The notes beneath the pieces are model-generated. The model searched no databases, had not been told where the DNA came from, and worked only from the letters and a program-made list of their open reading frames with translations. From a virus, in the IMG/VR virus record IMGVR_UViG_3300024433_002526: 22,737 nucleotides of DNA; one strand, 5' to 3'. The translations under genes and the position numbers were made by a program. Within the stretch, counting starts at the first letter, position 1. Every line of letters starts with the position of its first letter. Shown piece by piece: positions 6,267-20,986 of this stretch.

Positions 6267-8115
6267 TCTCGTCCTTCGTCTCGTCGATGGTCATCGCCAG
6301 ATCGAGGTGGTCCTCGGTCTTGTACAGCTCTCCGCTGGTGTCCTTGCTCGGAATAGCCGAACCCTCTTCCTCGCCGCCTTCCCTCCCGAACCAGTCCTCA
6401 CGAAGGTCCTTCACGAAGAAGTGCTTCGCATCGGAAGGCTTGACCTTGCGTGACTCCATCATCTGGTTGACCCGGCCGAGCCGCGTGACCAACTCCATGA
6501 GCAATGGCCGTAGCTCGGGCCGGAGCTTCTCGAACTCTGCTCCTGGTGCTCCCGAGGGTCCTTCGGCCGGAGGCGGCGGCGGCGGAGGCAGTCCCGGACC
6601 GGCGGCATTGACATCGCCCGGCGGTGGCATCTCAGGAGGCGGCGCTGGCGGCGCACCAGGCTCGCCACCTTGTTGCTGTGGAGCACCCGGCAGGATCAAC
6701 GCGTCGATCAGCCTGTCGGACAGGTGCCCATACTGCTTGAGCACGTACCTGATCCAGATCTGCATGTCGAAGTTGACCTGTTGTCCGAGGTTGAGCAGGC
6801 GATCGATGATGTCAATGCGGATCTCGATCAGCTGCTGACGGTGCAGCTCTTCGAGGAACGAGACCGGTGCCATAGCCAGGGTGAACTGGTTGTCCGGATC
6901 TCGGGGGTCGATCCCCCTAAACGCCAGGTTCAGCTGGAGGACACGGTGAACACCAAGCAGGAAGTACCGCTGCAGCTTCTGCGGTATGCGGACGTATCGA
7001 CTGTCCTGCTGTGTGAGTCTCCGGCTGGGGTCATACGGTGTCGAGCCCTCGATGTTGTAGCCAAAGAAGCTGGGCGGGATGCGGACCGACGCGTGATACC
7101 GCGCCAGATAGTAGTGCAGGTTCGTAGCTTCATTCGCGTTGCTCGAACCCTTGAGTCGTTCGATCTTCGTCTCGCGTCCCTGCACCTGAGGGACCACGAG
7201 GTCCTCATTCGCCGTCCACGGGTTCCAGTCCTCACGGAGCTGGCCGCTGCTCGGGTCGTAGTACTTCGTCTTCTTGAGCTTCGTCGTGAAGCGCTCGACG
7301 TAGTCCGAGGTCTCCTCGTCAGTGAGGCCAGTGCAGTCGACGTAGTAGACGTCGCGGTCAGCATGGCGCTGAAGGATGTAGACGACGTCGGCGTCTTCGG
7401 CCATGCGCAACCTGCGGTACGGCCTGCGAGATGACACGAGCAACGTGGTGCCGTACATGGCCGAGAGCGATCCAAAGATCCTGAAGTGCACGATCTCCCA
7501 CGGCTGCTTGTTCGGCTCCGAGGAACCACCAGCAGTCTCGCCGAGGTAGAAGCCGAGCAGCGTTCCGGTGTCGTAGTCCTCAAACCTGCGGAACCGCTTC
7601 GGGTGGTGGAAGCGCAGCATGCTAATGCCGGTACCGGGCTCCCAGAAGAGTTCGACAGGGAAGTCGCCATATTTGCCGAGGCCTCTGCCGACCAGTGGCG
7701 CGTACTCTTCGAGCTGAGTGGTCTCGATGCACTCCTCGCAGATCTGGCGGATCTCTTCGTTGCAGTCCTCCACCCAGAGCATGCGGTTCGTTGCCGGGTC
7801 GATCTGGATTGCGTCCTCGGTATACGTGTCGAGCACGGCCGACGGGAGATCGTCCGAGTCCATGACATCGACCTCGTCGTAGATCTCCATCCTCGTCTTG
7901 CCCAGACGCATGCGCTCGCCGTAGAACGAGTACATGTTCTGGCCTTCTTCGCCAGACGCGAGCGACGGCGCGGCAGCCTTCCCCGAGGTGTCCCGTCGTC
8001 GCATGTAGGGTTTGGGCGCTCCATAGAGGACGCCTCGGATGAAGTTGTAGATACGGGTCCCAAAGCCTTGCCTGGGTCGCATCTCTTCGTTGACCACCTG
8101 CGGTGCCTGCGCCAT
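6256..8115 (-). CDS. Portal protein (with C-terminal proline-rich insertion)
   Basis: 619 aa, immediately downstream of the large terminase. ATG 8115 is preceded by GGGAGG with a 7-nt spacer. The N-terminal motif 'RMEIYDEVDVMDSDDLPSAVLDTYTEDAIQ' resembles the conserved portal motif (Y-x-E-x-x-x-M-D ... ALD-x-Y-A-x-D-A). Size and position are typical. Confidence 0.7.
   Translation of the reverse strand: MAQAPQVVNEEMRPRQGFGTRIYNFIRGVLYGAPKPYMRRRDTSGKAAAPSLASGEEGQNMYSFYGERMRLGKTRMEIYDEVDVMDSDDLPSAVLDTYTEDAIQIDPATNRMLWVEDCNEEIRQICEECIETTQLEEYAPLVGRGLGKYGDFPVELFWEPGTGISMLRFHHPKRFRRFEDYDTGTLLGFYLGETAGGSSEPNKQPWEIVHFRIFGSLSAMYGTTLLVSSRRPYRRLRMAEDADVVYILQRHADRDVYYVDCTGLTDEETSDYVERFTTKLKKTKYYDPSSGQLREDWNPWTANEDLVVPQVQGRETKIERLKGSSNANEATNLHYYLARYHASVRIPPSFFGYNIEGSTPYDPSRRLTQQDSRYVRIPQKLQRYFLLGVHRVLQLNLAFRGIDPRDPDNQFTLAMAPVSFLEELHRQQLIEIRIDIIDRLLNLGQQVNFDMQIWIRYVLKQYGHLSDRLIDALILPGAPQQQGGEPGAPPAPPPEMPPPGDVNAAGPGLPPPPPPPAEGPSGAPGAEFEKLRPELRPLLMELVTRLGRVNQMMESRKVKPSDAKHFFVKDLREDWFGREGGEEEGSAIPSKDTSGELYKTEDHLDLAMTIDETKDENES
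6529..6693 (-). repeat. Low-complexity Pro/Gly/Ala tract inside the portal gene
   Basis: Encodes 'LPGAPQQQGGEPGAPPAPPPEMPPPGDVNAAGPGLPPPPPPPAEGPSGAPGAEFE'. On the plus strand it appears as ggcggcggcggcggagg-type runs. Confidence 0.8.
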
Positions 8116-8118
8116 CTA

Positions 8119-11100
8119 TCAACCTCCCACCAAAATTGCCGGTGCCTGCGGTAGTCCCCCGACCGGTAGCCGTTGCTGCATCTCCAACTTGTTGGCCCTC
8201 TTCCTCGGTGGGATCAGACCGTAGACTGCCCCACACAGAGCGTCGCTCACGTCCTTGGACCCACTGAGCGGCTTGAAGACCTTCTTCGCCGTTATGTCGT
8301 GCGACAGGTGCCTCAGCTCAGTTTCGAGCGGTTCGTACGGGTACGTTCTGATTATCCCGGACTCGTAGACACCCTTCAAGTTTATATACGGATCATCCGA
8401 TTCGTCGACACTCACAAAATCAGCCTCGATGCCCATCTTGTGGAGCTTCTGTACGAAGTGCCTTGACTGGTACTTGTCCAGGGAGACCATCTGGAACGTG
8501 TAATGGTTCCGGTGGAGGTACTCAACGAATTCGATGATCTTGTCGAAGTCCACTTCGCCCCGGCCGTACGGAGGCGGATCGATCCGGAATGCGAAGTCCA
8601 GGTAGGTGAGCGGCATGCCTCCCTGTGGCGGTGTCCACATGTGCACGCACGCGATTCCCACTGAGCAGCCGGTCACCGCAAGGTCGATATGCATGACGCG
8701 CCCAGCCTCTGGGTGCAGCCTCGGCCGATAGTGGTTGAGGTGTGTCTCGAACATGATGTCCTCGCGCACAGCGTCCTGAATGCGGACAGGCGAGTTCGTC
8801 GAGATCACCATGAACTGGGTCTTGAACGGGTGAACCAAGTTCTCGTCGTAGTTGTTGTATATGACTTCCGGCCTGTGGAACAACCCGCTCGCCGCAACCG
8901 TCGCACGCCCAGCGATATTGCGGATGAAGTCTTCGATGTTGTTTTCGGCGTCGGGCTTGTGCTCCAACGGGGCCGTGATCACATTGGCCTCGTCTACCTG
9001 GTCAGCCTCGTCCTCGCCCTCCACGAGAATACGAGGCTCCGCAGTGTCGTCGCCACAGAAGACCCGGAACGTCCTTCCGCTCTTGTATGTGCCCTCGGGC
9101 TGAACGTCCCATATGGCACGAGAAATTACCGCGACACCGTCCTCGTGGCCGTGCTTCGTAATGTGCTCTTCGAGGAAGTCAGTCTGGGCGCGTCGCTGCG
9201 AGAGCAGGCACATGAAGTATGGCGCGGCCGAGCCAGGGCTGGCTACGAACTGGTTGCGGAGGCGTCCTCGGATCGCGCCGTACAGCTTCTGCGCCTGACC
9301 CAGCGATTCCTCTGCATGCGCCCTGCTTCGGCCCTTAGCCGAGCGCATGAAGTTGACCTCGTCGAGAATACCGCCGATGAATGTTTCACCCAGTGCGTGA
9401 AGCTCGGTGGCGCCCTCAACGATCGACACATGGTCCGGAAGGATCAGCTCCTTGCTGCGCTCGCCACTCAGCCGAGAGAACTTCTCCACGAAGTACGGGC
9501 ACTCGTCGATGATCGCCTGGATACGCGAGTGCATGTCGCCGGTCTTGTACTTGAAGATATTGAAGATGCCGTACCGGATGCTCGATCCACGCATCAGACC
9601 AAAGAATCCCTGTGGGTCCCTCAGCAACGAGAGTAGATAGATCCGGTACCCGGCCATGATCGTAGCCAGGGTGGTGTTATGTGTGACTACACAATGGTCT
9701 GTCAGATAGAGACCACCTGGCGCGGACGTTGAGATGCACTGGGTCTCTTCCGCACCGGAGTATTCAACTGATACAATGGCCCTACTTGGAGCGTATCGAG
9801 CCCTCGGCCTGTAGTGGTTCTTCTTTCTAGTGAGCTGGAATGGGCAGAGCCATGATGGGAGTGCCAGCCTCAGCCTATACCGATCTCGACCGGCCGTAGG
9901 ACCAACAAGATATCTGCAAACACCGCCAAGACTTTCGACCAGGAAACGCACATCGGCAGCAAGACGTGGCGACGCAGTCGAATACTCCAGCTTGTTGTTG
10001 CTGTGCTCAACAGAACCGTTTTCAGTATCCATGAGACCCTGCAACAAATACGCCCGTTGCTGTACGCTGCCATAGAGGTAGTCCTTCGGTACTCGCTTCT
10101 CGTGCGCTGGGTGGCACATGTCGAGTGCCTTGAGGGCTTGCATCAACGGATTAGACTTACCACCGCGCGTGCCAGAGGAGAGCGAGTAAGTGTACCGGCC
10201 TTTGTGGTTTGCCTGAACACCAGGAGGTAAGAGAGCCGCCACCCAATGCAGAAGTTCCCTATCAGAGGTCGTCAATATTGGCGTGTTCTGCGTGAGACCG
10301 CCATTACCGATCAACACACCCGCCAGGTATGGGTGAAGCAGGAGATGTCGTTCCGACCACTGTATCGGGTCAGCCACTGGAACGAACCACTTATTCGAGC
10401 CGTCCCTATAGTGTAGGTCCGACGAAAGCTCCCGAAGAGTCTTCGTTCTCAGGGGTCGCCTATAGTGCTTGTCAGACTTCGTGAAGACAGACCAGAGATG
10501 CTCCGCGCCGCACCGAACCACCTGTCCATCAGAGAACGTCACAGTGTAGACGTCACGAGCACCCTGTGGGTAGACACCGGTCACCGGGTAGAAGTAGCCA
10601 TCCCTGCCAGCTACCAGATCATTGGTAGTGATGTCTCCCATCTTCTTCAGGCCGTCGGAAGTGATCAGTTCTGAGGTCAGTGGTTGGTCTTTGCCCCACC
10701 TTGTGGAGCCCGTGAGGACGACCTCGAAGACTCGGTTCTTCGGGTTGAGCAGCCAGCACGCATCCCGGAAGTTGACTGGGTAGAGACCCTCACCGAAGCG
10801 GCCCGCGTAGTATGGGTCAGTGAGAAACTGGCGTGGTGTGACCGGGATGTCCTTGTAGTCCTGTGTGACAATCCCAGCCGCAGTCTCGCTCCAGCCATCA
10901 AGCATCAGCTCGTCAACGATACGAGGAATCGAGTCGCGGAGGTGCTGGAAGTCTTCTGCCCTGACAAGGTTCGCAACCTCGTCGAAGGATGAATAGACCT
11001 TCAGAATCTCTCTGCGGAGATCCGGGTCGAGACCGGCGACAAACTCGTCGTCACCGTTTATGTGAGCCGTCAGTGCCAGCTGGAGGAGATTTCTCTTCTT

Positions 11101-11136
11101 CCCCACTACCGGCCTGTCGACCTCGGGCCTTAACAT
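8119..11136 (-). CDS. terL: Terminase large subunit, intein-containing precursor (1005 aa)
   Basis: Walker A 'GSTRWGK' is interrupted after Lys149 and resumes 'TTLATIMAGY'. Walker B is 'GGILDEVNF'. The C-terminal RNase H-like nuclease region contains 'HIDLAVTG', 'VSLDKYQ' and 'DVSDALCGAVYG'. In the 86-nt overlap with the upstream gene, this frame carries the G/C third-position bias, which supports ATG 11136. Confidence 0.9.
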   Translation of the reverse strand: MLRPEVDRPVVGKKRNLLQLALTAHINGDDEFVAGLDPDLRREILKVYSSFDEVANLVRAEDFQHLRDSIPRIVDELMLDGWSETAAGIVTQDYKDIPVTPRQFLTDPYYAGRFGEGLYPVNFRDACWLLNPKNRVFEVVLTGSTRWGKDQPLTSELITSDGLKKMGDITTNDLVAGRDGYFYPVTGVYPQGARDVYTVTFSDGQVVRCGAEHLWSVFTKSDKHYRRPLRTKTLRELSSDLHYRDGSNKWFVPVADPIQWSERHLLLHPYLAGVLIGNGGLTQNTPILTTSDRELLHWVAALLPPGVQANHKGRYTYSLSSGTRGGKSNPLMQALKALDMCHPAHEKRVPKDYLYGSVQQRAYLLQGLMDTENGSVEHSNNKLEYSTASPRLAADVRFLVESLGGVCRYLVGPTAGRDRYRLRLALPSWLCPFQLTRKKNHYRPRARYAPSRAIVSVEYSGAEETQCISTSAPGGLYLTDHCVVTHNTTLATIMAGYRIYLLSLLRDPQGFFGLMRGSSIRYGIFNIFKYKTGDMHSRIQAIIDECPYFVEKFSRLSGERSKELILPDHVSIVEGATELHALGETFIGGILDEVNFMRSAKGRSRAHAEESLGQAQKLYGAIRGRLRNQFVASPGSAAPYFMCLLSQRRAQTDFLEEHITKHGHEDGVAVISRAIWDVQPEGTYKSGRTFRVFCGDDTAEPRILVEGEDEADQVDEANVITAPLEHKPDAENNIEDFIRNIAGRATVAASGLFHRPEVIYNNYDENLVHPFKTQFMVISTNSPVRIQDAVREDIMFETHLNHYRPRLHPEAGRVMHIDLAVTGCSVGIACVHMWTPPQGGMPLTYLDFAFRIDPPPYGRGEVDFDKIIEFVEYLHRNHYTFQMVSLDKYQSRHFVQKLHKMGIEADFVSVDESDDPYINLKGVYESGIIRTYPYEPLETELRHLSHDITAKKVFKPLSGSKDVSDALCGAVYGLIPPRKRANKLEMQQRLPVGGLPQAPAILVGG
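9676..10689 (-). mobile_element. Intein (~338 aa) with LAGLIDADG homing-endonuclease domain, class 3-like signature
   Basis: Removing residues D150..N487 restores the P-loop G-S-T-R-W-G-K-T. The C-terminal end is 'VVTHN|T' (block G). Two LAGLIDADG-like motifs are present, 'YLAGVLIGNGG' and 'YLLQGLMDTENGS'. There is no Cys/Ser/Thr at intein position 1, and there is Trp in 'AEHLW' (block B), Cys in 'ETQCIS' (block F) and Thr before HN. Codon usage inside is visibly A/T3-richer, with many AGG/AGA codons, than in the flanking extein. Confidence 0.85.
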
Positions 11137-11995
11137 TGATCTGCTCCACTGCTACTTCCCGCTCGACCTTCGACGGTATGTCCGGCCCGTTCTCAGGGCC
11201 GCCGGACAGGAATCCCTGCATGGCTTGGGTGAACTCACTGACCGAAGCGGTCAGGTGATGCCTCCGCTGTTCAACCTGCCTCCGCGCCTCGGTGTCGGTG
11301 CTGTCACCAGACTCGATGGTGCCAGCTGCTACGAAACCCATGCGCACGGTACCGCCGTCACCTTTGGGCGGCTTGGGCGTCGCCTTCTCCACAACCTCAG
11401 CAAGTAATCGTATCGCGTTGGTCGCGTCCTTGATGTGGGCATTGGCGTGCCCCATGAAGTCCCACAGATCGTCGTAGTTGAGTTCCGATGCGTCAGCCAG
11501 CTCGAACATCCTGCGTGACGCTACAGCGCTTGCCTCCATGATCGGACCGATCCTGTGCATCTGGTACGTCAGCAGCATATTCGCCGCCGCACGCAGCAAC
11601 GAAGGGTCCGCGCTGTCGATCTCTATCTGCTGGTTACCGTCGAACCAATCAGGCCAGCGTCCGTTCGTCATGCGGTACATGTACGCACGGTAGATCTGAT
11701 CCCCAGTGACCCGCTTATCGAACGGGATGAAGAACGACTGGCCGGGATACATCTTGTCGTACTCACGCAGCGTCGTCTCGTGATCCTCGCTCAGGTGCTT
11801 CTCGAATTCAGCTATGCCGTTGAGGTGTTTGTGGCACAGCCAGCAGGTACGCACACCGAGCTGCTTCAAGATCTTGGCATCGGGCTGCTTCCTCTTCTTC
11901 GCCTTCTGCTCAAACCAAAGCTCACGCCGCGTTGCCGCCTTCTTCTTGGCAGCCTTCTTCTTCTTCTTGGTTGCAGCCTTCTTCATCTTAGCCAT
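11051..11995 (-). CDS. Lys-rich C2H2 zinc-finger DNA-binding protein (possible small terminase subunit by position)
   Basis: N-terminus 'MAKMKKAATKKKKKAAKKKAAT..KAKKRKQ'. Then 'CWLCHKHLNGIAEFEKHLSEDH', which is C-X2-C-X12-H-X4-H. A helical body follows. It lies directly upstream of terL and overlaps it. No recognisable TerS motif, so the function is inferred from position only. Confidence 0.55.
   Translation of the reverse strand: MAKMKKAATKKKKKAAKKKAATRRELWFEQKAKKRKQPDAKILKQLGVRTCWLCHKHLNGIAEFEKHLSEDHETTLREYDKMYPGQSFFIPFDKRVTGDQIYRAYMYRMTNGRWPDWFDGNQQIEIDSADPSLLRAAANMLLTYQMHRIGPIMEASAVASRRMFELADASELNYDDLWDFMGHANAHIKDATNAIRLLAEVVEKATPKPPKGDGGTVRMGFVAAGTIESGDSTDTEARRQVEQRRHHLTASVSEFTQAMQGFLSGGPENGPDIPSKVEREVAVEQINVKARGRQAGSGEEEKSPPAGTDGSHKR
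11876..11995 (-). repeat. (AAG/GCN)n Lys/Ala-coding low-complexity tract
   Basis: The plus strand shows cttcttcttggcagccttcttcttcttcttggttgcagccttcttcat. A comparable tract lies at 18219..18320. Confidence 0.8.
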
Positions 11996-16216: not shown

Positions 16217-17181
16217 CGCAACACCTCGAATGCTTGAACCCATGATCCATACGTGCGGAGGAGAGGATTCATCTCGTACAGCGTCATGAATTGCATCACG
16301 GCCTGCCAGTTGAACACAGGCTGCTGATGCCAGTGCATCCAGACCCAGTTCCGTTCCTCTTCGCCCATCGCGAGGCCAGACCAGAACCAGACAAGCTGGA
16401 TGTTGCGCTCGATCTGCTGTTGTACTTCGGCTTCGAGCAGCGACTGGTACTTCTTCGCCTTGGGGAAGTGCTGCTTCACAGCCTCTACCATCTGCGCCAA
16501 GCTCGGACCCTTCGACTTGTCCATGAGATTGCGCACTCCGCCGGGGCCGAGTCCCTTACAGGGCGACGGGATGTTGTCGGACGAGTCGCCAAGGATGCCC
16601 TTCGCTACGATCACCTCCCAGGGTCCCCAATCACTCCAGTCCCGCCAGTTGTCAGCACCGACGACCAGCTCCTTATTCGTAGAGTAGACCATGCTGTGCT
16701 CACCAAGGATCTGCGCAAAGTCCTTGTCCTCAGACACGACGTACGAGTCGCAGTTATACTGGGCCAACGTGTTTGACAGGTACCAGATCGTGTCGTCTGC
16801 CTCGTGCGGCCCATTGACCACAACCACACCGAAGCTCGGAAGATACTGAAGGAGGATGTCACGCTGGTAGATGTACATCTGCCTGTAGTTCTCAGACTCC
16901 ACGCGGTCCTCTTCGCTCTTGTACTCCTTGCGCTTGTACTCAGGGTAGAGGGCCACTCGGTTGGGATGCTTGTCGAAGTCATGAACCCATAACACGCGTG
17001 ACGGGTTCAGTGTCCTGACGATCGCTGTCAGAGACTGGAGCGATTTCATAGCAGCGCCGATCGGAGCACCGTGCGGACCCGACTCAGCGCCGGGCAGGTG
17101 CATCGATCGATGGAGTATGTACGACCCGTCAATTATGGCTACCCCACCGGGTCGAAGCCGTTGTAAGCCAGCCTTCGGCAT
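16213..17181 (-). CDS. 5'-3' exonuclease / flap endonuclease (FEN, PIN-like plus H3TH)
   Basis: Motifs 'VAIIDGSYILHRS', 'HEADDTIWYLS', 'VVSEDKDFAQIL' and 'GILGDSSDNIPSPCKGLGPGG'. I place the start at ATG 17181; the track's 17196 is a TTG. The gene overlaps the end of the RecA-like gene. Confidence 0.85.
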   Translation of the reverse strand: MPKAGLQRLRPGGVAIIDGSYILHRSMHLPGAESGPHGAPIGAAMKSLQSLTAIVRTLNPSRVLWVHDFDKHPNRVALYPEYKRKEYKSEEDRVESENYRQMYIYQRDILLQYLPSFGVVVVNGPHEADDTIWYLSNTLAQYNCDSYVVSEDKDFAQILGEHSMVYSTNKELVVGADNWRDWSDWGPWEVIVAKGILGDSSDNIPSPCKGLGPGGVRNLMDKSKGPSLAQMVEAVKQHFPKAKKYQSLLEAEVQQQIERNIQLVWFWSGLAMGEEERNWVWMHWHQQPVFNWQAVMQFMTLYEMNPLLRTYGSWVQAFEVLR

Positions 17182-18320
17182 TGGTCCACCATCCAAGCTC
17201 TAACATCGGTTCGCTCGATCAAGAACTGACGGTACGTATTCCAGTAGCACGCCGCAGGCGTTGGCATACGGAACGTGATCACCTTGCCCAGGTTCTGTGC
17301 GTCCTCTTTCCCTGGTGCAGTGACACTGATGTGGCTTGCTCGCTGTGACAAGTACTCAAACATGGCGAAGTCATCGTCGAATCCGCCTTGGAATGTCACA
17401 GGTATCCGCGTCCTTCGGTGCGGCGGGAACGTCTTGTTTTTGCGGGCCACGGCATACGGCATCACACCGTAGCTCGCCTTCGACTCACCATAGACCTGGC
17501 CTCCCGCCTGGACAGCCTGGGCCTCCAAGAACTTCTTTGCGCTGCGGAATTCCATGCGGATCGAAGCATGGAATCTGATGCCCTGCCCAAACGGTGTCGC
17601 GGGCTCGGTGTCCCACTGGTTGAACGTCGCGGACACATGGTTCACGAACACCATGAGAGCGTTGTGCTTCGCGACGAGCCCGGTGATCTCTCGCAGTCCT
17701 TCGCGCACAACACGACCCCCAGAACCCGGTCGGTCGTCCTTGGAGTGTGATGCTCCGATAGTATCCCATGTGATCAGCATGGGCTTGTTGTGCTTCTTCC
17801 CACCCAAGAGGCTCTTGATCCACGCATAGCCGTCCTCGATGAACTCGAACTCAAGGTACTTCACCGCGTGAGTGTCGACACCGATGCGGGCCATGCGTGC
17901 AGGGTCGAGCGTGTACTCAGTAATCCCCATACAGACTTCGCCGCCAACACGCTGAACCTGAGCAGCCAGGTTTTCACAGAACGTGCTCTTTCCTGTGCTG
18001 TACGCTCCGACGACCTCAATGATACGACCGACTGGAACTCCCCAGTTCGTCGCGAGCGTACCGTCAGACGGGCTCGGTATGACCTCCCCGTCCTCGGTGA
18101 CAGTGGTGGGGCCACCCATGATCGCATCGAGCGGAGTACACCCACAGCTGATACGCTCGCGAACAACCGAGTAGAGCTTGGCGGTCCCGAGCACTCCGAC
18201 CGGGACCGCCTGCTCTGCCTTCTTGCCCTTCTGCTTCTTTGCGGCCTGCTTCTTGGTGCTCTTCTTCTTGGCCTTCTTCTTCTTGGGCGTCGTCTTCTTG
18301 GTCTGCCTTTTCGCTACCAT
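17139..18320 (-). CDS. RecA/UvsX-like recombinase with Lys-rich N-terminal tail
   Basis: The RecA core is colinear: 'VGRIIEVVGAYSTGKSTF' (Walker A), 'MLITWDTIGA' (Walker B), 'LMVFVNHV', 'PFGQGIRFHASIRMEFR' and 'VARKNKTFPP'. ATG 18320 has GAGGAG 10 nt upstream. ATG 18344 is an alternative start. The tail is 'VAKRQTKKTTPKKKKAKKKSTKKQAAKKQKGKK'. Confidence 0.85.
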   Translation of the reverse strand: MVAKRQTKKTTPKKKKAKKKSTKKQAAKKQKGKKAEQAVPVGVLGTAKLYSVVRERISCGCTPLDAIMGGPTTVTEDGEVIPSPSDGTLATNWGVPVGRIIEVVGAYSTGKSTFCENLAAQVQRVGGEVCMGITEYTLDPARMARIGVDTHAVKYLEFEFIEDGYAWIKSLLGGKKHNKPMLITWDTIGASHSKDDRPGSGGRVVREGLREITGLVAKHNALMVFVNHVSATFNQWDTEPATPFGQGIRFHASIRMEFRSAKKFLEAQAVQAGGQVYGESKASYGVMPYAVARKNKTFPPHRRTRIPVTFQGGFDDDFAMFEYLSQRASHISVTAPGKEDAQNLGKVITFRMPTPAACYWNTYRQFLIERTDVRAWMVDQCRRLAYNGFDPVG

Positions 18321-18385
18321 GAGTTCCGCACTCCTCGTCCGCATCGGACTTCAAGAAGGCACGTTCGACAGAGCACCGAGCCGTT

Positions 18386-18432: not shown

Positions 18433-20265
18433 CTACTGGGAAAAAGGGGGCTGCTGCCAGTTCGGAGCCGCCATCCCGGCCGGTGCCGGGGCAGGCGCGG
18501 GAGCCGGTACAGCTGCTGGCACCGCCGCAGGAGTCGCGGGCGTTGCAACGGCCTTACACTTCGCGGACTTGTTGAGGTGCGTCGTCAAGCCGCGTTGGCC
18601 GCTGTACTCGTTACCGCAGGCAGGGCATAGGACCTTGTCGGCCTTGGCCTTCCCTTTCGACTTGCCCTTCTTCGCCGGTTCTCCAGCACCATCAGTAGGG
18701 GACGTTGCCACCTGCTGCGGGGCCGGAGCCGGGGGGAAAGGGCTTTGGGGTCCTCCCTGTCCCGGCATCGCCGGAGGCTGAGGGAGAGCGCCAGCCTGAG
18801 GAGCCGGTGCAGGCATGGGCATTGGTGCCGGTGCCCCTGCGGGCATAGGACCAGGAGCCATCATCGGAGCCCCTGGGGGAACAACACCCGGACCCATTGC
18901 TGGCGCCCCTACAGGAGCGCCCGGCACCGCTGGCGGCGCCCACATGTTCTGCTGTGGCTGTGCCAGCATCGGAGCTGGCGTCGGTGCCGGTGCCACGGCA
19001 GCCGGTGCCCCGCCGACCGGGGGCATCATACCCATCGGTCCAACTCCGGCCGGAGCTGCCACCGAGGAACCCACTGGAGCTGGCTGAGGAGCTGACTGCG
19101 GGACCCCGGTGGCAGGCTGTCCGGCCATCGCAGGCATCGGCATTGAGCTTGGGCCACCGACACCCGGTGCGGTGTTCTGGAACTGGTTCGGCGGTCCCAT
19201 CACACCCACTGCAGGAGCTGGAGGCTGAGGTGCGAACTGCTGACCTGCCTGAGGTCCGAACTGCTGTCCCGGCATCCCCATCTGGCCCATCGCGGGTGCG
19301 GCTGCACCATGCGTCTGGCCTACGATGTCGGGAACGGTGAGCTGCAGATTGAGGCCGAGCTGCTCCGGATGGTAGCCTGTCATCTGCAAGCACTGCTGCG
19401 CCAGAGTCTCTGCGATCTTCATCTGGTTCTGGAGCTTCTCGACCGTCGGGATACCGAAGTTCGCGAACGAGTCGAGGTCATGCATGCCGCTGAGAATCTG
19501 CTGCATCGTGTTCGGATCACCGGCGAGCGGACCCTGCATCGTCTGTTGCCATGTGTAACTGTTCTTGCCCTGGAACGACACGGGCTTCTTGACCAGCATG
19601 ATCCAACCTGTCTGAAGGTTGAGGATCGATCCCACGTACGGCATGGACATCAGCTGCACGAGACCCGAGAACACCGAGACGGGCAGGCGCAGGACGTAAG
19701 GCTTGAGCCGCCTGTACAACATGGTGCGGCCCATGTCCTGCGTGTCGTAGATCACCGAGTTGACGTACTGGTAGGAGCGGGGCGTCATGTTGTCGAGGCT
19801 GCCGCCCATGTACTGACTGTACACATCGATCACCTGGCAGATCGGGCACGTGAAACCGTAGTTCGGGTACGACTTCTCCCAGCACGACGAGTGCTGGTTG
19901 CCGAGCAGCTGGTGGTGCGAGCAATGGAACTTCGACCACGCTCCACGCTGTGCAGCCGCGTCGCTCCACGGCGGGAGCACGCGGAACCAGTTGTCACCGG
20001 TCTTGAAGGAGTAGAAGTCTGTGTCCTTCTTCCGCGCCGCGTTCATCGTGCTGATTTCTTCGGCCTGTTTGCGGATGCTCTCCATGTCGACGTCACGAGC
20101 CATGATAGAGTTGACGTCGACACCCGGAGCACCACCCTGGCCGCCCGGCGGCATCGCCGGAGGCTGTGCAGGTGCGAATTGAGCCGCCTGCGGGACGACG
20201 GGTGCCATTCCCGGCTGCCCGGGCATTTGCATTCCCCCGCCAGGCATCATCTGTCCTGGTTGCAT
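18433..20265 (-). CDS. gp32-like ssDNA-binding protein with long P/A/G/M/Q disordered regions and a C-terminal C2HC zinc finger
   Basis: ATG 20265 is preceded by AGGGAGG with a 7-nt spacer. The core (res ~80-300) is colinear with T4 gp32 as I recall it: 'DNWFRVLPPW' vs 'QAVIRFLPS'; His/Cys cluster 'H..C...CPICQ' vs 'H...C...CPVCQ'; 'SYQYVNSVIYD' vs 'SYWANILVVKD'. Low-complexity regions cover res 1-48 and ~318-530. A Lys-rich patch and 'CPACGNEYSGQRGLTTHLNKSAKC' follow. Confidence 0.6.
   Translation of the reverse strand: MQPGQMMPGGGMQMPGQPGMAPVVPQAAQFAPAQPPAMPPGGQGGAPGVDVNSIMARDVDMESIRKQAEEISTMNAARKKDTDFYSFKTGDNWFRVLPPWSDAAAQRGAWSKFHCSHHQLLGNQHSSCWEKSYPNYGFTCPICQVIDVYSQYMGGSLDNMTPRSYQYVNSVIYDTQDMGRTMLYRRLKPYVLRLPVSVFSGLVQLMSMPYVGSILNLQTGWIMLVKKPVSFQGKNSYTWQQTMQGPLAGDPNTMQQILSGMHDLDSFANFGIPTVEKLQNQMKIAETLAQQCLQMTGYHPEQLGLNLQLTVPDIVGQTHGAAAPAMGQMGMPGQQFGPQAGQQFAPQPPAPAVGVMGPPNQFQNTAPGVGGPSSMPMPAMAGQPATGVPQSAPQPAPVGSSVAAPAGVGPMGMMPPVGGAPAAVAPAPTPAPMLAQPQQNMWAPPAVPGAPVGAPAMGPGVVPPGAPMMAPGPMPAGAPAPMPMPAPAPQAGALPQPPAMPGQGGPQSPFPPAPAPQQVATSPTDGAGEPAKKGKSKGKAKADKVLCPACGNEYSGQRGLTTHLNKSAKCKAVATPATPAAVPAAVPAPAPAPAPAGMAAPNWQQPPFSQ
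18676..19314 (-). repeat. Low-complexity coding region (Pro/Ala/Gly/Met/Gln-rich, ~210 aa)
   Basis: Examples are 'PAMGQMGMPGQQFGPQAGQQFAPQPPAPAVGVMGPP...APMPMPAPAPQAGALPQPPAMPGQGG'. It generates several spurious overlapping ORFs in other frames and on the other strand (18692..19393, 18745..19095, 18815..19087, 18897..19340). Confidence 0.85.
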
Positions 20266-20278
20266 CGCTATTACCTCC

Positions 20279-20986
20279 CTAGCCAGTCACCTGGGGTGAT
20301 CGCGGGTCAGACGACTCCCTGATCAGTCCCAATTCGCGCTGGGTCCACACGCTCGCCTGGACGAGCATCTCTGTTTGCATACTGTCGAGCAGGTTCTGCA
20401 GCTGGTAGCCCAGGTACTCCCAGTCATCCTGCAGCTCCTGCAACATCGAGTGCGTCGGGTCATTCCTGATCTGCGCGTCGACCGCGTCGTTCGTCACCTT
20501 GATGCTCTTGTCCTGCATGGACATCTCACCAAGTCTCTGACGGGTCGGCATGTCGAGGTCGCGCTGGCGCATCTTGCGCACACGCTCGACCAGGCGCTGC
20601 ATCTCGGTGGACCACGTACGGTAGAACCGAATGCTCTCCGCGATCCGCACGTACTCCATGACGATCGAACGGATCTCGGTGTTCTGGAACCACGAGATGA
20701 TGTTCACGATCTGCGTGTACATCGGGTTCAGGTACTGCATCGTCTCCAGCAACCGCTGATCGTTCGAGGCCTGTGTCGCCTGGTAGATCTTCTGGATCTT
20801 CGTGTAGAGGTACTGCTGCACGAAGTCGAAGGAAGGCTTGTTCACTGCCTGTCCCTCCACTGGTGGCAGATGCACATACACCTGATCCGGTGTTGGCTGC
20901 GTTCCCCCTTGCGTTGCTGGTGCAGCCTGACCCTGCAACGCACTCTTCTTGACGGCCTTCTTCTTTGCCACTGCTCCTCCTTTCAT
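20279..20986 (-). CDS. Hypothetical helical protein (235 aa) with Lys-rich N-terminus; a recombination mediator or replication accessory role is possible from context only
   Basis: ATG 20986 overlaps the polymerase stop (TGATG). N-terminus 'MKGGAVAKKKAVKK'. The rest is predicted helical, with at most a faint UvsY-like flavour. It lies between the polymerase and SSB genes. Confidence 0.65.
   Translation of the reverse strand: MKGGAVAKKKAVKKSALQGQAAPATQGGTQPTPDQVYVHLPPVEGQAVNKPSFDFVQQYLYTKIQKIYQATQASNDQRLLETMQYLNPMYTQIVNIISWFQNTEIRSIVMEYVRIAESIRFYRTWSTEMQRLVERVRKMRQRDLDMPTRQRLGEMSMQDKSIKVTNDAVDAQIRNDPTHSMLQELQDDWEYLGYQLQNLLDSMQTEMLVQASVWTQRELGLIRESSDPRSPQVTG

Follow-up and report, generated by a model that had tools for sequence, protein, structure and literature searches.

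The tails of proteins that bind single-stranded DNA (ssDNA), called SSBs, organize replication and recombination, and it is a textbook rule, exemplified by T4 gp32, T7 gp2.5 and bacterial SSB, that such a tail is acidic. The tail of T4 gp32 spans roughly 50 amino acids (aa), and the linker of Escherichia coli SSB comprises a few tens of residues. The acidic C-terminal domain of gp32 serves as a regulatory and interaction domain (PMC5892887). In bacterial SSBs, a linker that is disordered and variable is paired with a conserved peptide at the C terminus, to which many partners bind (PMC7584906), and PxxP-based partner binding has been proposed for the E. coli SSB linker (PMC10164576). Here, we describe an SSB that is encoded on a 22,737-nucleotide (nt) stretch of viral DNA (IMG/VR record IMGVR_UViG_3300024433_002526; the whole stretch is hereafter called the window). 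The core of this protein almost certainly adopts the gp32-type fold and identifies it as an SSB. Furthermore, we consider it probable that the protein is the SSB of an uncultivated tailed phage in which the acidic tail has been replaced with a tethered docking hub. The gene and its segments, all on the minus strand, are as follows.

18433..20265 (minus strand): complete SSB gene of 610 codons plus a stop codon (18433-18435), from the list of open reading frames (ORFs); the exact protein occurs in a public collection as P0001.
20274..20279 (minus strand): Shine-Dalgarno sequence GGGAGG, read directly from the sequence, 8 nt 5' of the ATG at 20265 and overlapping the stop codon of the 235-aa gene that lies upstream.
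20122..20265 (minus strand): uncharged low-complexity N-terminal extension, residues 1-48 (P/G/Q/M/A), from composition and a predicted local distance difference test (pLDDT) score of 23-32.
19315..20121 (minus strand): gp32-type core, residues 49-317, with an N-terminal helix (residues ~61-82), an oligonucleotide-binding (OB) fold that includes a zinc subdomain, and a helical part at the C-terminal end, from phrog_1192, profile comparison, Pfam in relatives, AlphaFold2 (AF2) and Foldseek.
19837..19917 (minus strand): putative zinc-ligand set of the core, H117, C128, C140 and C143 (H-X10-C-X11-C-X2-C), from conservation and profile alignment.
18754..19314 (minus strand): long uncharged linker, predicted to be disordered, residues 318-504 (P/A/G/Q/M/V), from composition and a pLDDT of 22-33.
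18676..18753 (minus strand): conserved tail island, residues 505-530, SPFPPAPAPQQVATSPTDGAGEP, a candidate short linear motif, from residues invariant in six relatives.
18637..18675 (minus strand): Lys-rich patch, residues 531-543, AKKGKSKGKAKAD, unconserved in the alignment of relatives.
18550..18636 (minus strand): single classical-type zinc finger of a C2HC variant, residues 544-572, KVLCPACGNEYSGQRGLTTHLNKSAKCKA, predicted from conservation, AF2, profile comparison and Pfam.
18484..18549 (minus strand): Ala/Pro spacer, residues 573-594, from composition, with a 6-aa insertion or deletion (indel) relative to the close relative P0002.
18436..18483 (minus strand): conserved non-acidic aromatic C-terminal tip, residues 595-610, PAGMAAPNWQQPPFSQ, from invariant residues.

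The PHROG SSB family phrog_1192 matches residues 60-280 of the window SSB with an E value of 5e-9. The window SSB alone gives no gp32 match in Pfam even at E ≤ 10, and a single-sequence phmmer search of the PDB returns one non-significant match to the finger only. The family set consists of 72 relatives obtained by an exhaustive phmmer search with the core against 1.84 billion representatives (E ≤ 1e-3), and 55 of these 72 gp32-like relatives underlie the family profile and the conservation counts; in other homologue searches, the core alone found none and a core profile found four proteins only. The 55-sequence profile matches the T4 and RB69 gp32 structures 8gme, 2atq, 2a1k and 1gpc with E values of 4.8e-18 to 1.6e-17, and Pfam PF08804 matches 27 of the 55 relatives individually (best E value, 4e-16). 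H117, C128, C140 and C143 are conserved in at least 90% of the 55 members, and in the profile alignment they line up with the His, Cys and CPVC segment of gp32 (8gme), which predicts a metal site. An AF2 model of the core (residues 56-317, ten sequences) displays a pLDDT of 84.7 and a predicted template modeling score of 0.77; it replaced a full-length model (six sequences, pLDDT 37) that was too poor for a core fold search. In the Foldseek comparison of the core model with the PDB, the top six matches are all gp32 (probability 1.00, E values of 1.3e-8 to 1.8e-6, template modeling (TM) scores of 0.53-0.66), and the first non-gp32 match appears at an E value of 0.087. Among predicted viral structures, 43 phage SSB-type models match the core at E ≤ 1e-3, and all of them, at 193-489 aa, are shorter than the window SSB. 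The N-terminal helix of the core precedes the OB fold and contains the invariant residues D60, M61 and I64 and an 'ARKK' segment at 78-81; it is not aligned in the profile to residues 1-21 of gp32, the basic N-terminal domain through which gp32 binds cooperatively, and the 48-aa extension precedes it.

How does the window SSB compare with the gp32 proteins of T4 and RB69 (Pfam PF08804)? These proteins share the OB-fold core and the His/Cys3 zinc subdomain (profile E value of ~5e-18, fold E value of ~1e-8, TM score up to 0.66), and the colinearity of the core with the OB-fold/zinc region of T4 gp32 that a preliminary description of this DNA had proposed is thereby upheld by both the family profile and the AF2/Foldseek comparison. 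They also occupy the same genomic role beside recombinase and replication genes. However, the structural alignments exhibit only ~14-16% identity. Unlike T4 gp32, the window SSB has no acidic C-terminal domain (no Asp or Glu in residues 573-610) and instead possesses a 293-aa tail, an extra 48-aa uncharged N-terminal tract and a second predicted zinc site, the C2HC finger, together with an aromatic tip. The acidic C-terminal domain is a trait of T4-type gp32 and not of the fold family.

The segments outside the core are distinguished by composition. Residues 1-48 consist of 25% Pro, 23% Gly, 17% Gln, 15% Met and 15% Ala, and residues 318-524 (207 aa) consist of 28% Pro, 20% Ala, 14% Gly, 10% Gln, 9% Met and 7% Val; neither segment contains a single Lys, Arg, Asp or Glu, whereas the core (residues 49-317) has an ordinary composition. 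The long tract is followed by residues 525-543, DGAGEPAKKGKSKGKAKAD, by the finger with its predicted ligands C547-X2-C550-X12-H563-X6-C570, and by an Ala/Pro tail (residues 573-610) that has no charged residue and ends in 'PNWQQPPFSQ'. As a whole, the 293-aa tail that follows the core is 5% charged, and the protein contains 10 PxxP motifs. The strong GGGAGG Shine-Dalgarno sequence 8 nt before the ATG indicates that the N-terminal low-complexity stretch should be translated. The 48-aa low-complexity start, the ~210-aa tract, the C-X2-C-X12-H-X6-C finger and the Ala/Pro tail ending in 'NWQQPPFSQ' had all been listed in the preliminary description, and each is found in the sequence, the tract measuring 207 aa and being dominated by Pro, Ala, Gly, Gln, Met and Val. 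In the full-length AF2 model, both low-complexity tracts lack secondary structure and have pLDDT values of 22-33, as expected of the disordered segments that they had been taken to be.

The tail contains conserved islands, as revealed by an alignment of the six closest relatives (P0001-P0006, with a core identity of only ~47-54%). In the first island, P509, F510, P511, A513, P514, P516, Q517, P523, G526 and G528 are invariant ('PFPxAPxPQ...P..G.G'), and the window SSB reads 'PFPPAPAPQ' at residues 509-517. In the finger, K544, V545, C547, P548, C550, G551, Y554, L560, H563, K566, S567 and C570 are invariant. In the tip, the invariant residues P595, G597, M598, P601, W603, Q604 and P607 are followed by Phe or Leu, and the window SSB reads 'GMAAPNW..PPF' at residues 597-608. 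An ending of the 'PxW..GPFP' type is present in P0001-P0006 and P0012, with a 'PPSF..GPFP' variant in P0008. Within each contig, the island and tip motifs occur in the SSB only. By this alignment, 'PFPPAPAPQ' and the tip are the two best-conserved tail elements, and both had been overlooked in the earlier reading, which had suggested recruitment in part through the basic patch. Of the six proteins, just the window SSB, P0002 and P0005 possess the Lys patch, which thus is not a defining recruitment element; the neutral or acidic stretch at this position in P0003, P0004 and P0006 rules it out as a conserved module.

The finger is the sole confident C-terminal element of the full-length AF2 model (pLDDT 71-81) and is predicted to form a beta-beta-alpha unit with strands at residues 544-546 and 553-555 and a helix at residues 556-566. 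A profile built from the fingers of 12 relatives matches classical C2H2 fingers, including the consensus finger 1mey (E value of 9e-9), the single finger 3iuf_A (3e-6) and the multi-finger protein Aart (2e-18, summed). Pfam zf-C2H2 matches the fingers of 11 of the 12 relatives, and the window SSB's own finger matches zf-C2H2_4 only, weakly, at an E value of 0.029. These comparisons support a conserved zinc finger at the predicted position, as previously suggested. The window finger resembles classical C2H2 fingers in its C-X2-C-X3-aromatic-X5-Leu-X2-His spacing (Y554 and L560) and predicted beta-beta-alpha structure, and the relatives P0011, P0013 and P0015 have the canonical H-X4-H ending. 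In contrast to the classical type, the last ligand of the window finger is a Cys at X6 rather than a His at X3-5, and the finger is present as a single copy near the end of a disordered tail.

What is the biological function of such a tail? We propose that the gene encodes a replicative and recombinational SSB whose core would coat ssDNA like gp32 and whose tail would carry a modular hub on a disordered, uncharged tether of ~190 aa that is rich in Pro, Ala and Gly. This hub would take over the function of the acidic partner-binding tail of T4 gp32 using three islands, namely 'PFPxAPxPQ', one classical C2HC zinc finger and the aromatic 'PxW..GPFP' tip, and these islands may dock replisome or recombination partners. 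We infer docking modules because the three islands are invariant in an otherwise unalignable tail, are confined to the SSB in each contig and include a C2H2-like finger. Alternatively, the finger could provide a second, non-specific contact with nucleic acid. The tether and the 48-aa N-terminal tract would be selected for length, composition and lack of charge and not for sequence, since linkers that cannot be aligned stay Pro-rich and uncharged and since indels spare the core and the finger. The tether would set the reach and local concentration of the hub, and on cooperatively coated ssDNA the tails would pack into a dense brush in which the docking modules are locally concentrated.

The behavior of the tracts across the subclade bears on this proposal. 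In 12 subclade representatives, the N-terminal extension is 19-110 aa long, contains 14-35% Pro and is almost free of charge, whereas nearly all family members outside the subclade have an extension of 0-14 aa. A survey of tract length in relatives, which the preliminary description had suggested, gives linkers of 127-267 aa across the same representatives; these are unalignable and nearly uncharged and contain 25-34% Pro and 12-33% Ala.

E. coli SSB is built on a similar plan. In both proteins, a variable disordered linker leads to a short conserved peptide that has a Pro-Phe-like hydrophobic element at its end, and both linkers are rich in Pro, Gly and Gln with abundant PxxP motifs. However, E. 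coli SSB is a homotetramer with an unrelated type of OB fold rather than the gp32 fold, contains no zinc finger and has a linker far shorter than the ~190 residues of the window SSB. Furthermore, its tip is acidic, whereas that of the window SSB (W603, P607-F608) contains no acidic residue. The window tip may work like the tip of an interaction hub while lying outside the acidic-peptide motif class of bacterial SSBs.

Several points weigh against the docking-hub proposal. The link of the window SSB to gp32 requires a profile or fold comparison, the single sequence being insufficient for the Pfam gp32 family, and ssDNA binding, zinc content and disorder are predictions. No binding partner was identified, and the window contains no Pro-motif reader of the SH3, WW or GYF type. 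The upstream 235-aa protein resembles neither the gp59 loader nor any solved structure. Unlike base-reading fingers, the window finger carries Gly at both -1 and 3 of its helix. This is unusual for, and argues against, base-specific DNA reading, so that the ligand of the finger may be protein or nucleic acid. In addition, dN/dS, the ratio of nonsynonymous to synonymous substitution rates, is uninformative between the two closest alleles, which differ by 27 substitutions.

The wider family places the non-acidic tail in context. Among the 55 gp32-like representatives, 35 end in 'P.C(F/Y)G..(8-30 aa)..C-X2-C-X5-C' with no acidic tail, and thus a metal module in place of an acidic tail is a family trait. 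The preliminary description was correct that the window SSB lacks an acidic tail, but this feature is general to the wider gp32-like family and not special to this protein. The terminal Cys motif coexists with a C2H2-type finger in the intermediates P0007, P0009, P0010, P0011 and P0015, the finger forms the end of P0013, and the window clade (P0001-P0006, P0008 and P0012) has the aromatic tip in place of the terminal Cys4 motif. The Cys4-ending uncultivated family (72 representatives of the phrog_1192 type) shares with the window SSB a homologous core (E values down to 1e-76), a variable and often Pro/Ala/Gln-rich linker and a non-acidic C-terminal module of the metal type; it differs in that the window subclade ends in 'PxW..GPFP' without the Cys4 motif. 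The tail of the window SSB is 293 aa long and 5% charged, compared with family medians of 120 aa and 19%, and subclade tails are two to three times longer than in the family. By sequence comparison, the tip, the long tails, the near absence of charge and the N-terminal extension are specific to the clade.

Two further observations concern the tails of relatives. The terminal Cys4 motif of the family has no significant match in the PDB or Pfam. Its weak PDB matches (E values of 0.8-1.1) are to the [4Fe-4S] sites of WhiB, endonuclease III and MutY, which have the same C-X2-C-X5-C spacing; an SSB with a terminal Fe-S cluster or zinc knuckle, if true, would be worth study in itself. The tail of one relative, P0028, includes a WW domain (Pfam WW, E value of 2.5e-8). 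WW domains read Pro-rich motifs, and this domain hints that the tails of the SSB family may make use of Pro-motif recognition.

The lineage is distant from phages in culture. Searches of 50,697 phage records using tblastn yielded no match for the full SSB or the intermediate P0015, and the core gave only a weak match to the SSB of Myxococcus phage Mx1 (E value of 0.3). No relative and no prophage copy was found in 185,579 reference genomes, and IMG/VR yielded two loci only. On the basis of these searches, the SSB lineage has no cultured relative. Our literature search on gp32 or SSB with zinc fingers, disorder or metagenomic sources found no description of this architecture. The function of the protein, that of a phage SSB, is ordinary, but the design of its tail is unusual and undocumented.

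The composition of the tracts also allows readings other than a docking hub. In the first, which we regard as unlikely, the SSB is a condensate scaffold: the uncharged tracts would drive liquid-liquid phase separation, and the protein, alone or on ssDNA, would nucleate a membraneless replication/recombination factory, possibly redox-sensitive through Met oxidation. The tracts (48 and 207 aa) are uncharged and mildly hydrophobic (mean Kyte-Doolittle value of -0.06), contain sparse aromatic residues (F336, F344, F362, W442 and F510) and 19 Met residues, and have a 2P+G value of 0.70, which falls in the range of elastin-like coacervating polymers. Met accounts for 9.2% of the long tract and 14.6% of the N-terminal tract, compared with 2.8% in 15 other window proteins (binomial P = 8e-6 and 4e-4, respectively), and among the other window proteins a comparable P/A/G/Q/M tract occurs in the portal alone, over 55 aa. 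That segment of the T4-like portal (6256-8115, minus strand) comprises residues 471-526, after the Portal_T4 domain. The tail Met content of the window SSB (6.8%) is the highest among the 55 family members (median, 1.7%), and its charge is close to the lowest. However, linker Met reaches 7-10% only in the window SSB and its nearest relatives and is 1-5% in other subclade members, and thus Met richness is no conserved trait of the architecture. The Met-rich composition noted as unusual in the preliminary description is indeed enriched relative to the other window proteins but is not kept across the subclade.

Precedents for condensation point in both directions. For Met-rich low-complexity domains, a role in regulating phase separation in response to oxidation has been reported (PMC8394241, PMC9312190 and PMC7682574), and the SSB tracts resemble these domains in being Met-enriched, uncharged and low in complexity with Gln, Gly and Pro. 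The described examples are eukaryotic, whereas the SSB tracts are far richer in Pro and Ala, their Met enrichment is not kept among relatives and self-association of the SSB is hypothetical. E. coli SSB phase-separates through its linker, but its condensation depends on the multivalency of the tetramer and on contacts between tip and OB fold, and ssDNA inhibits it (PMC7584906); gp32-type proteins are monomers without such a tetramer. Moreover, uncharged Pro/Ala-rich chains are also typical of inert extended linkers, and weak PDB matches of the profile to E2 acyltransferase linkers fit this type. Condensate nucleation is plausible in terms of composition. A stronger version is improbable in our estimation. 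In that version, ~290 residues of charge-free Met/Pro/Ala/Gly/Gln tails on a monomeric gp32-type SSB would turn coated ssDNA into a self-associating brush or condensate, which would be tunable by Met oxidation and would take up clients via the finger and tip rather than through electrostatics. The SSB would in that case build the replication/recombination compartment of the phage on its own.

In the second reading, the tracts are passive spacers shaped by mutational drift. A genome with ~59% G+C would push an unconstrained linker toward GCN, CCN and GGN codons; the tracts would then only separate modules, and the N-terminal tract would be dispensable. The G+C content is 0.65-0.68 over the tract compared with ~0.58-0.60 nearby, and the tract varies freely in sequence and length, with local duplications such as GQQF(G/A)PQ twice in the window SSB and PMPQA three times in P0003. 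The dN/dS estimates between the window allele and P0002 (0.47 for the linker and 0.27 for the core) are compatible with drift but are uninformative point estimates from only 27 substitutions. Drift does not account for the near-complete exclusion of charge over 207 and 48 residues in every subclade member, the co-occurrence of the N- and C-terminal tracts in the window subclade only, or tails two to three times longer than the family median, and the enrichment in Met (ATG) runs against the G+C trend. We accordingly hold the passive-spacer reading to be doubtful.

The tract DNA itself is not repetitive. Tandem Repeats Finder reports no arrays other than two of 34 nt and 23 nt, direct repeats reach 36 nt at most (at 75% identity), and all four codons each of Pro, Ala and Gly are in use. 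Sixteen contigs, with four different ENA assemblies among them, encode exactly the P0002 protein (619 aa, 94% identical to the window SSB), and IMG/VR also contains a 94%-identical copy of the window SSB. All six indels that separate P0002 from the window SSB are in-frame; the long tract contains four of them, the Lys patch and the Ala/Pro tail contain one each, and none falls in the core or finger. An assembly artefact (collapsed or expanded repeats, a chimera or two genes fused by a sequencing error), which the preliminary description had named as a possible refutation, can thus be dismissed with near certainty given the non-repetitive DNA, the in-frame indels, the recovery of the tract from independent contigs of several samples and IMG/VR, the same architecture in 12 divergent representatives and the finger and tip that stay in the same frame downstream of the tract in every relative aligned.

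The genomic surroundings are those of a replication module. The SSB gene lies between the gene for the 235-aa protein and a RecA/UvsX-like gene (17139-18344, minus strand), and the surrounding window genes encode a family-A polymerase, a flap endonuclease (FEN), SbcD, SbcC, an intein-containing large terminase and a T4-like portal that is 22-25% identical to portals of T4-like phages. A module comprising PolA, RecA, FEN and SbcCD is conserved in the window and seven related loci, and related contigs with SSB cores of only 46-54% identity keep the order DnaB ... uracil-DNA glycosylase-PolA, ~225-aa unknown protein, SSB, RecA, FEN, SbcD, small ORF, SbcC. In every related contig, the 235-aa protein (20279-20986, minus strand) keeps its syntenic position between polymerase and SSB. 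It has no match in Pfam, PHROG or the PDB and is a candidate SSB partner or mediator. In T4, the gene order is 59-32, and we considered a gp59-like helicase loader for this protein, which obtained no support in the PDB or PHROGs.

Lys-rich N-terminal tails are present in three proteins of the replication module. The RecA/UvsX-like protein has a 50-aa tail of this kind (MRTRSAELMVAKRQTKKTTPKKKKAKKKSTKKQAAKKQKGKK), the 235-aa protein has a Lys-rich start in which 'AKKKA.K' is kept in relatives, and a 314-aa unknown protein (11051-11995, minus strand) begins with MAKMKKAATKKKKKAAKKK. The window polymerase gene (20986-22698, minus strand) seems to be cut off by the end of the sequence; its full-length relatives (928-929 aa; 6494-9280 in locus L001) are fused to a uracil-DNA-glycosylase-like domain. 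The large terminase (8119-11136, minus strand; 1005 aa) has a LAGLIDADG-type insertion, presumably an intein; its homologue in L001 is 657 aa long without the insertion, and those in L002-L004 are of the long form (995 aa). An HU-like DNA-binding protein (5787-6266), a PDDEXK endonuclease with a Lys-rich segment (3948-4703) and a 177-aa ORF (3551-4084) are also encoded on the minus strand. The 177-aa ORF overlaps the endonuclease gene by ~137 nt and shows a match just below threshold to the C-terminal, glycyl-radical end of anaerobic ribonucleotide reductase.

gp32 is widely used in isothermal amplification, and divergent cores with different tails are candidate reagents for this purpose. If the tails self-associate, the protein would offer a tractable single-protein model of condensate or brush formation on ssDNA. 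The lineage presents a gp32-type SSB without an electrostatic tail, having instead an uncharged tether about six times as long as the tail of T4 gp32, a eukaryote-style zinc finger and an aromatic tip. If these modules are partner-docking sites, they would represent a different recruitment code for phage replisomes.

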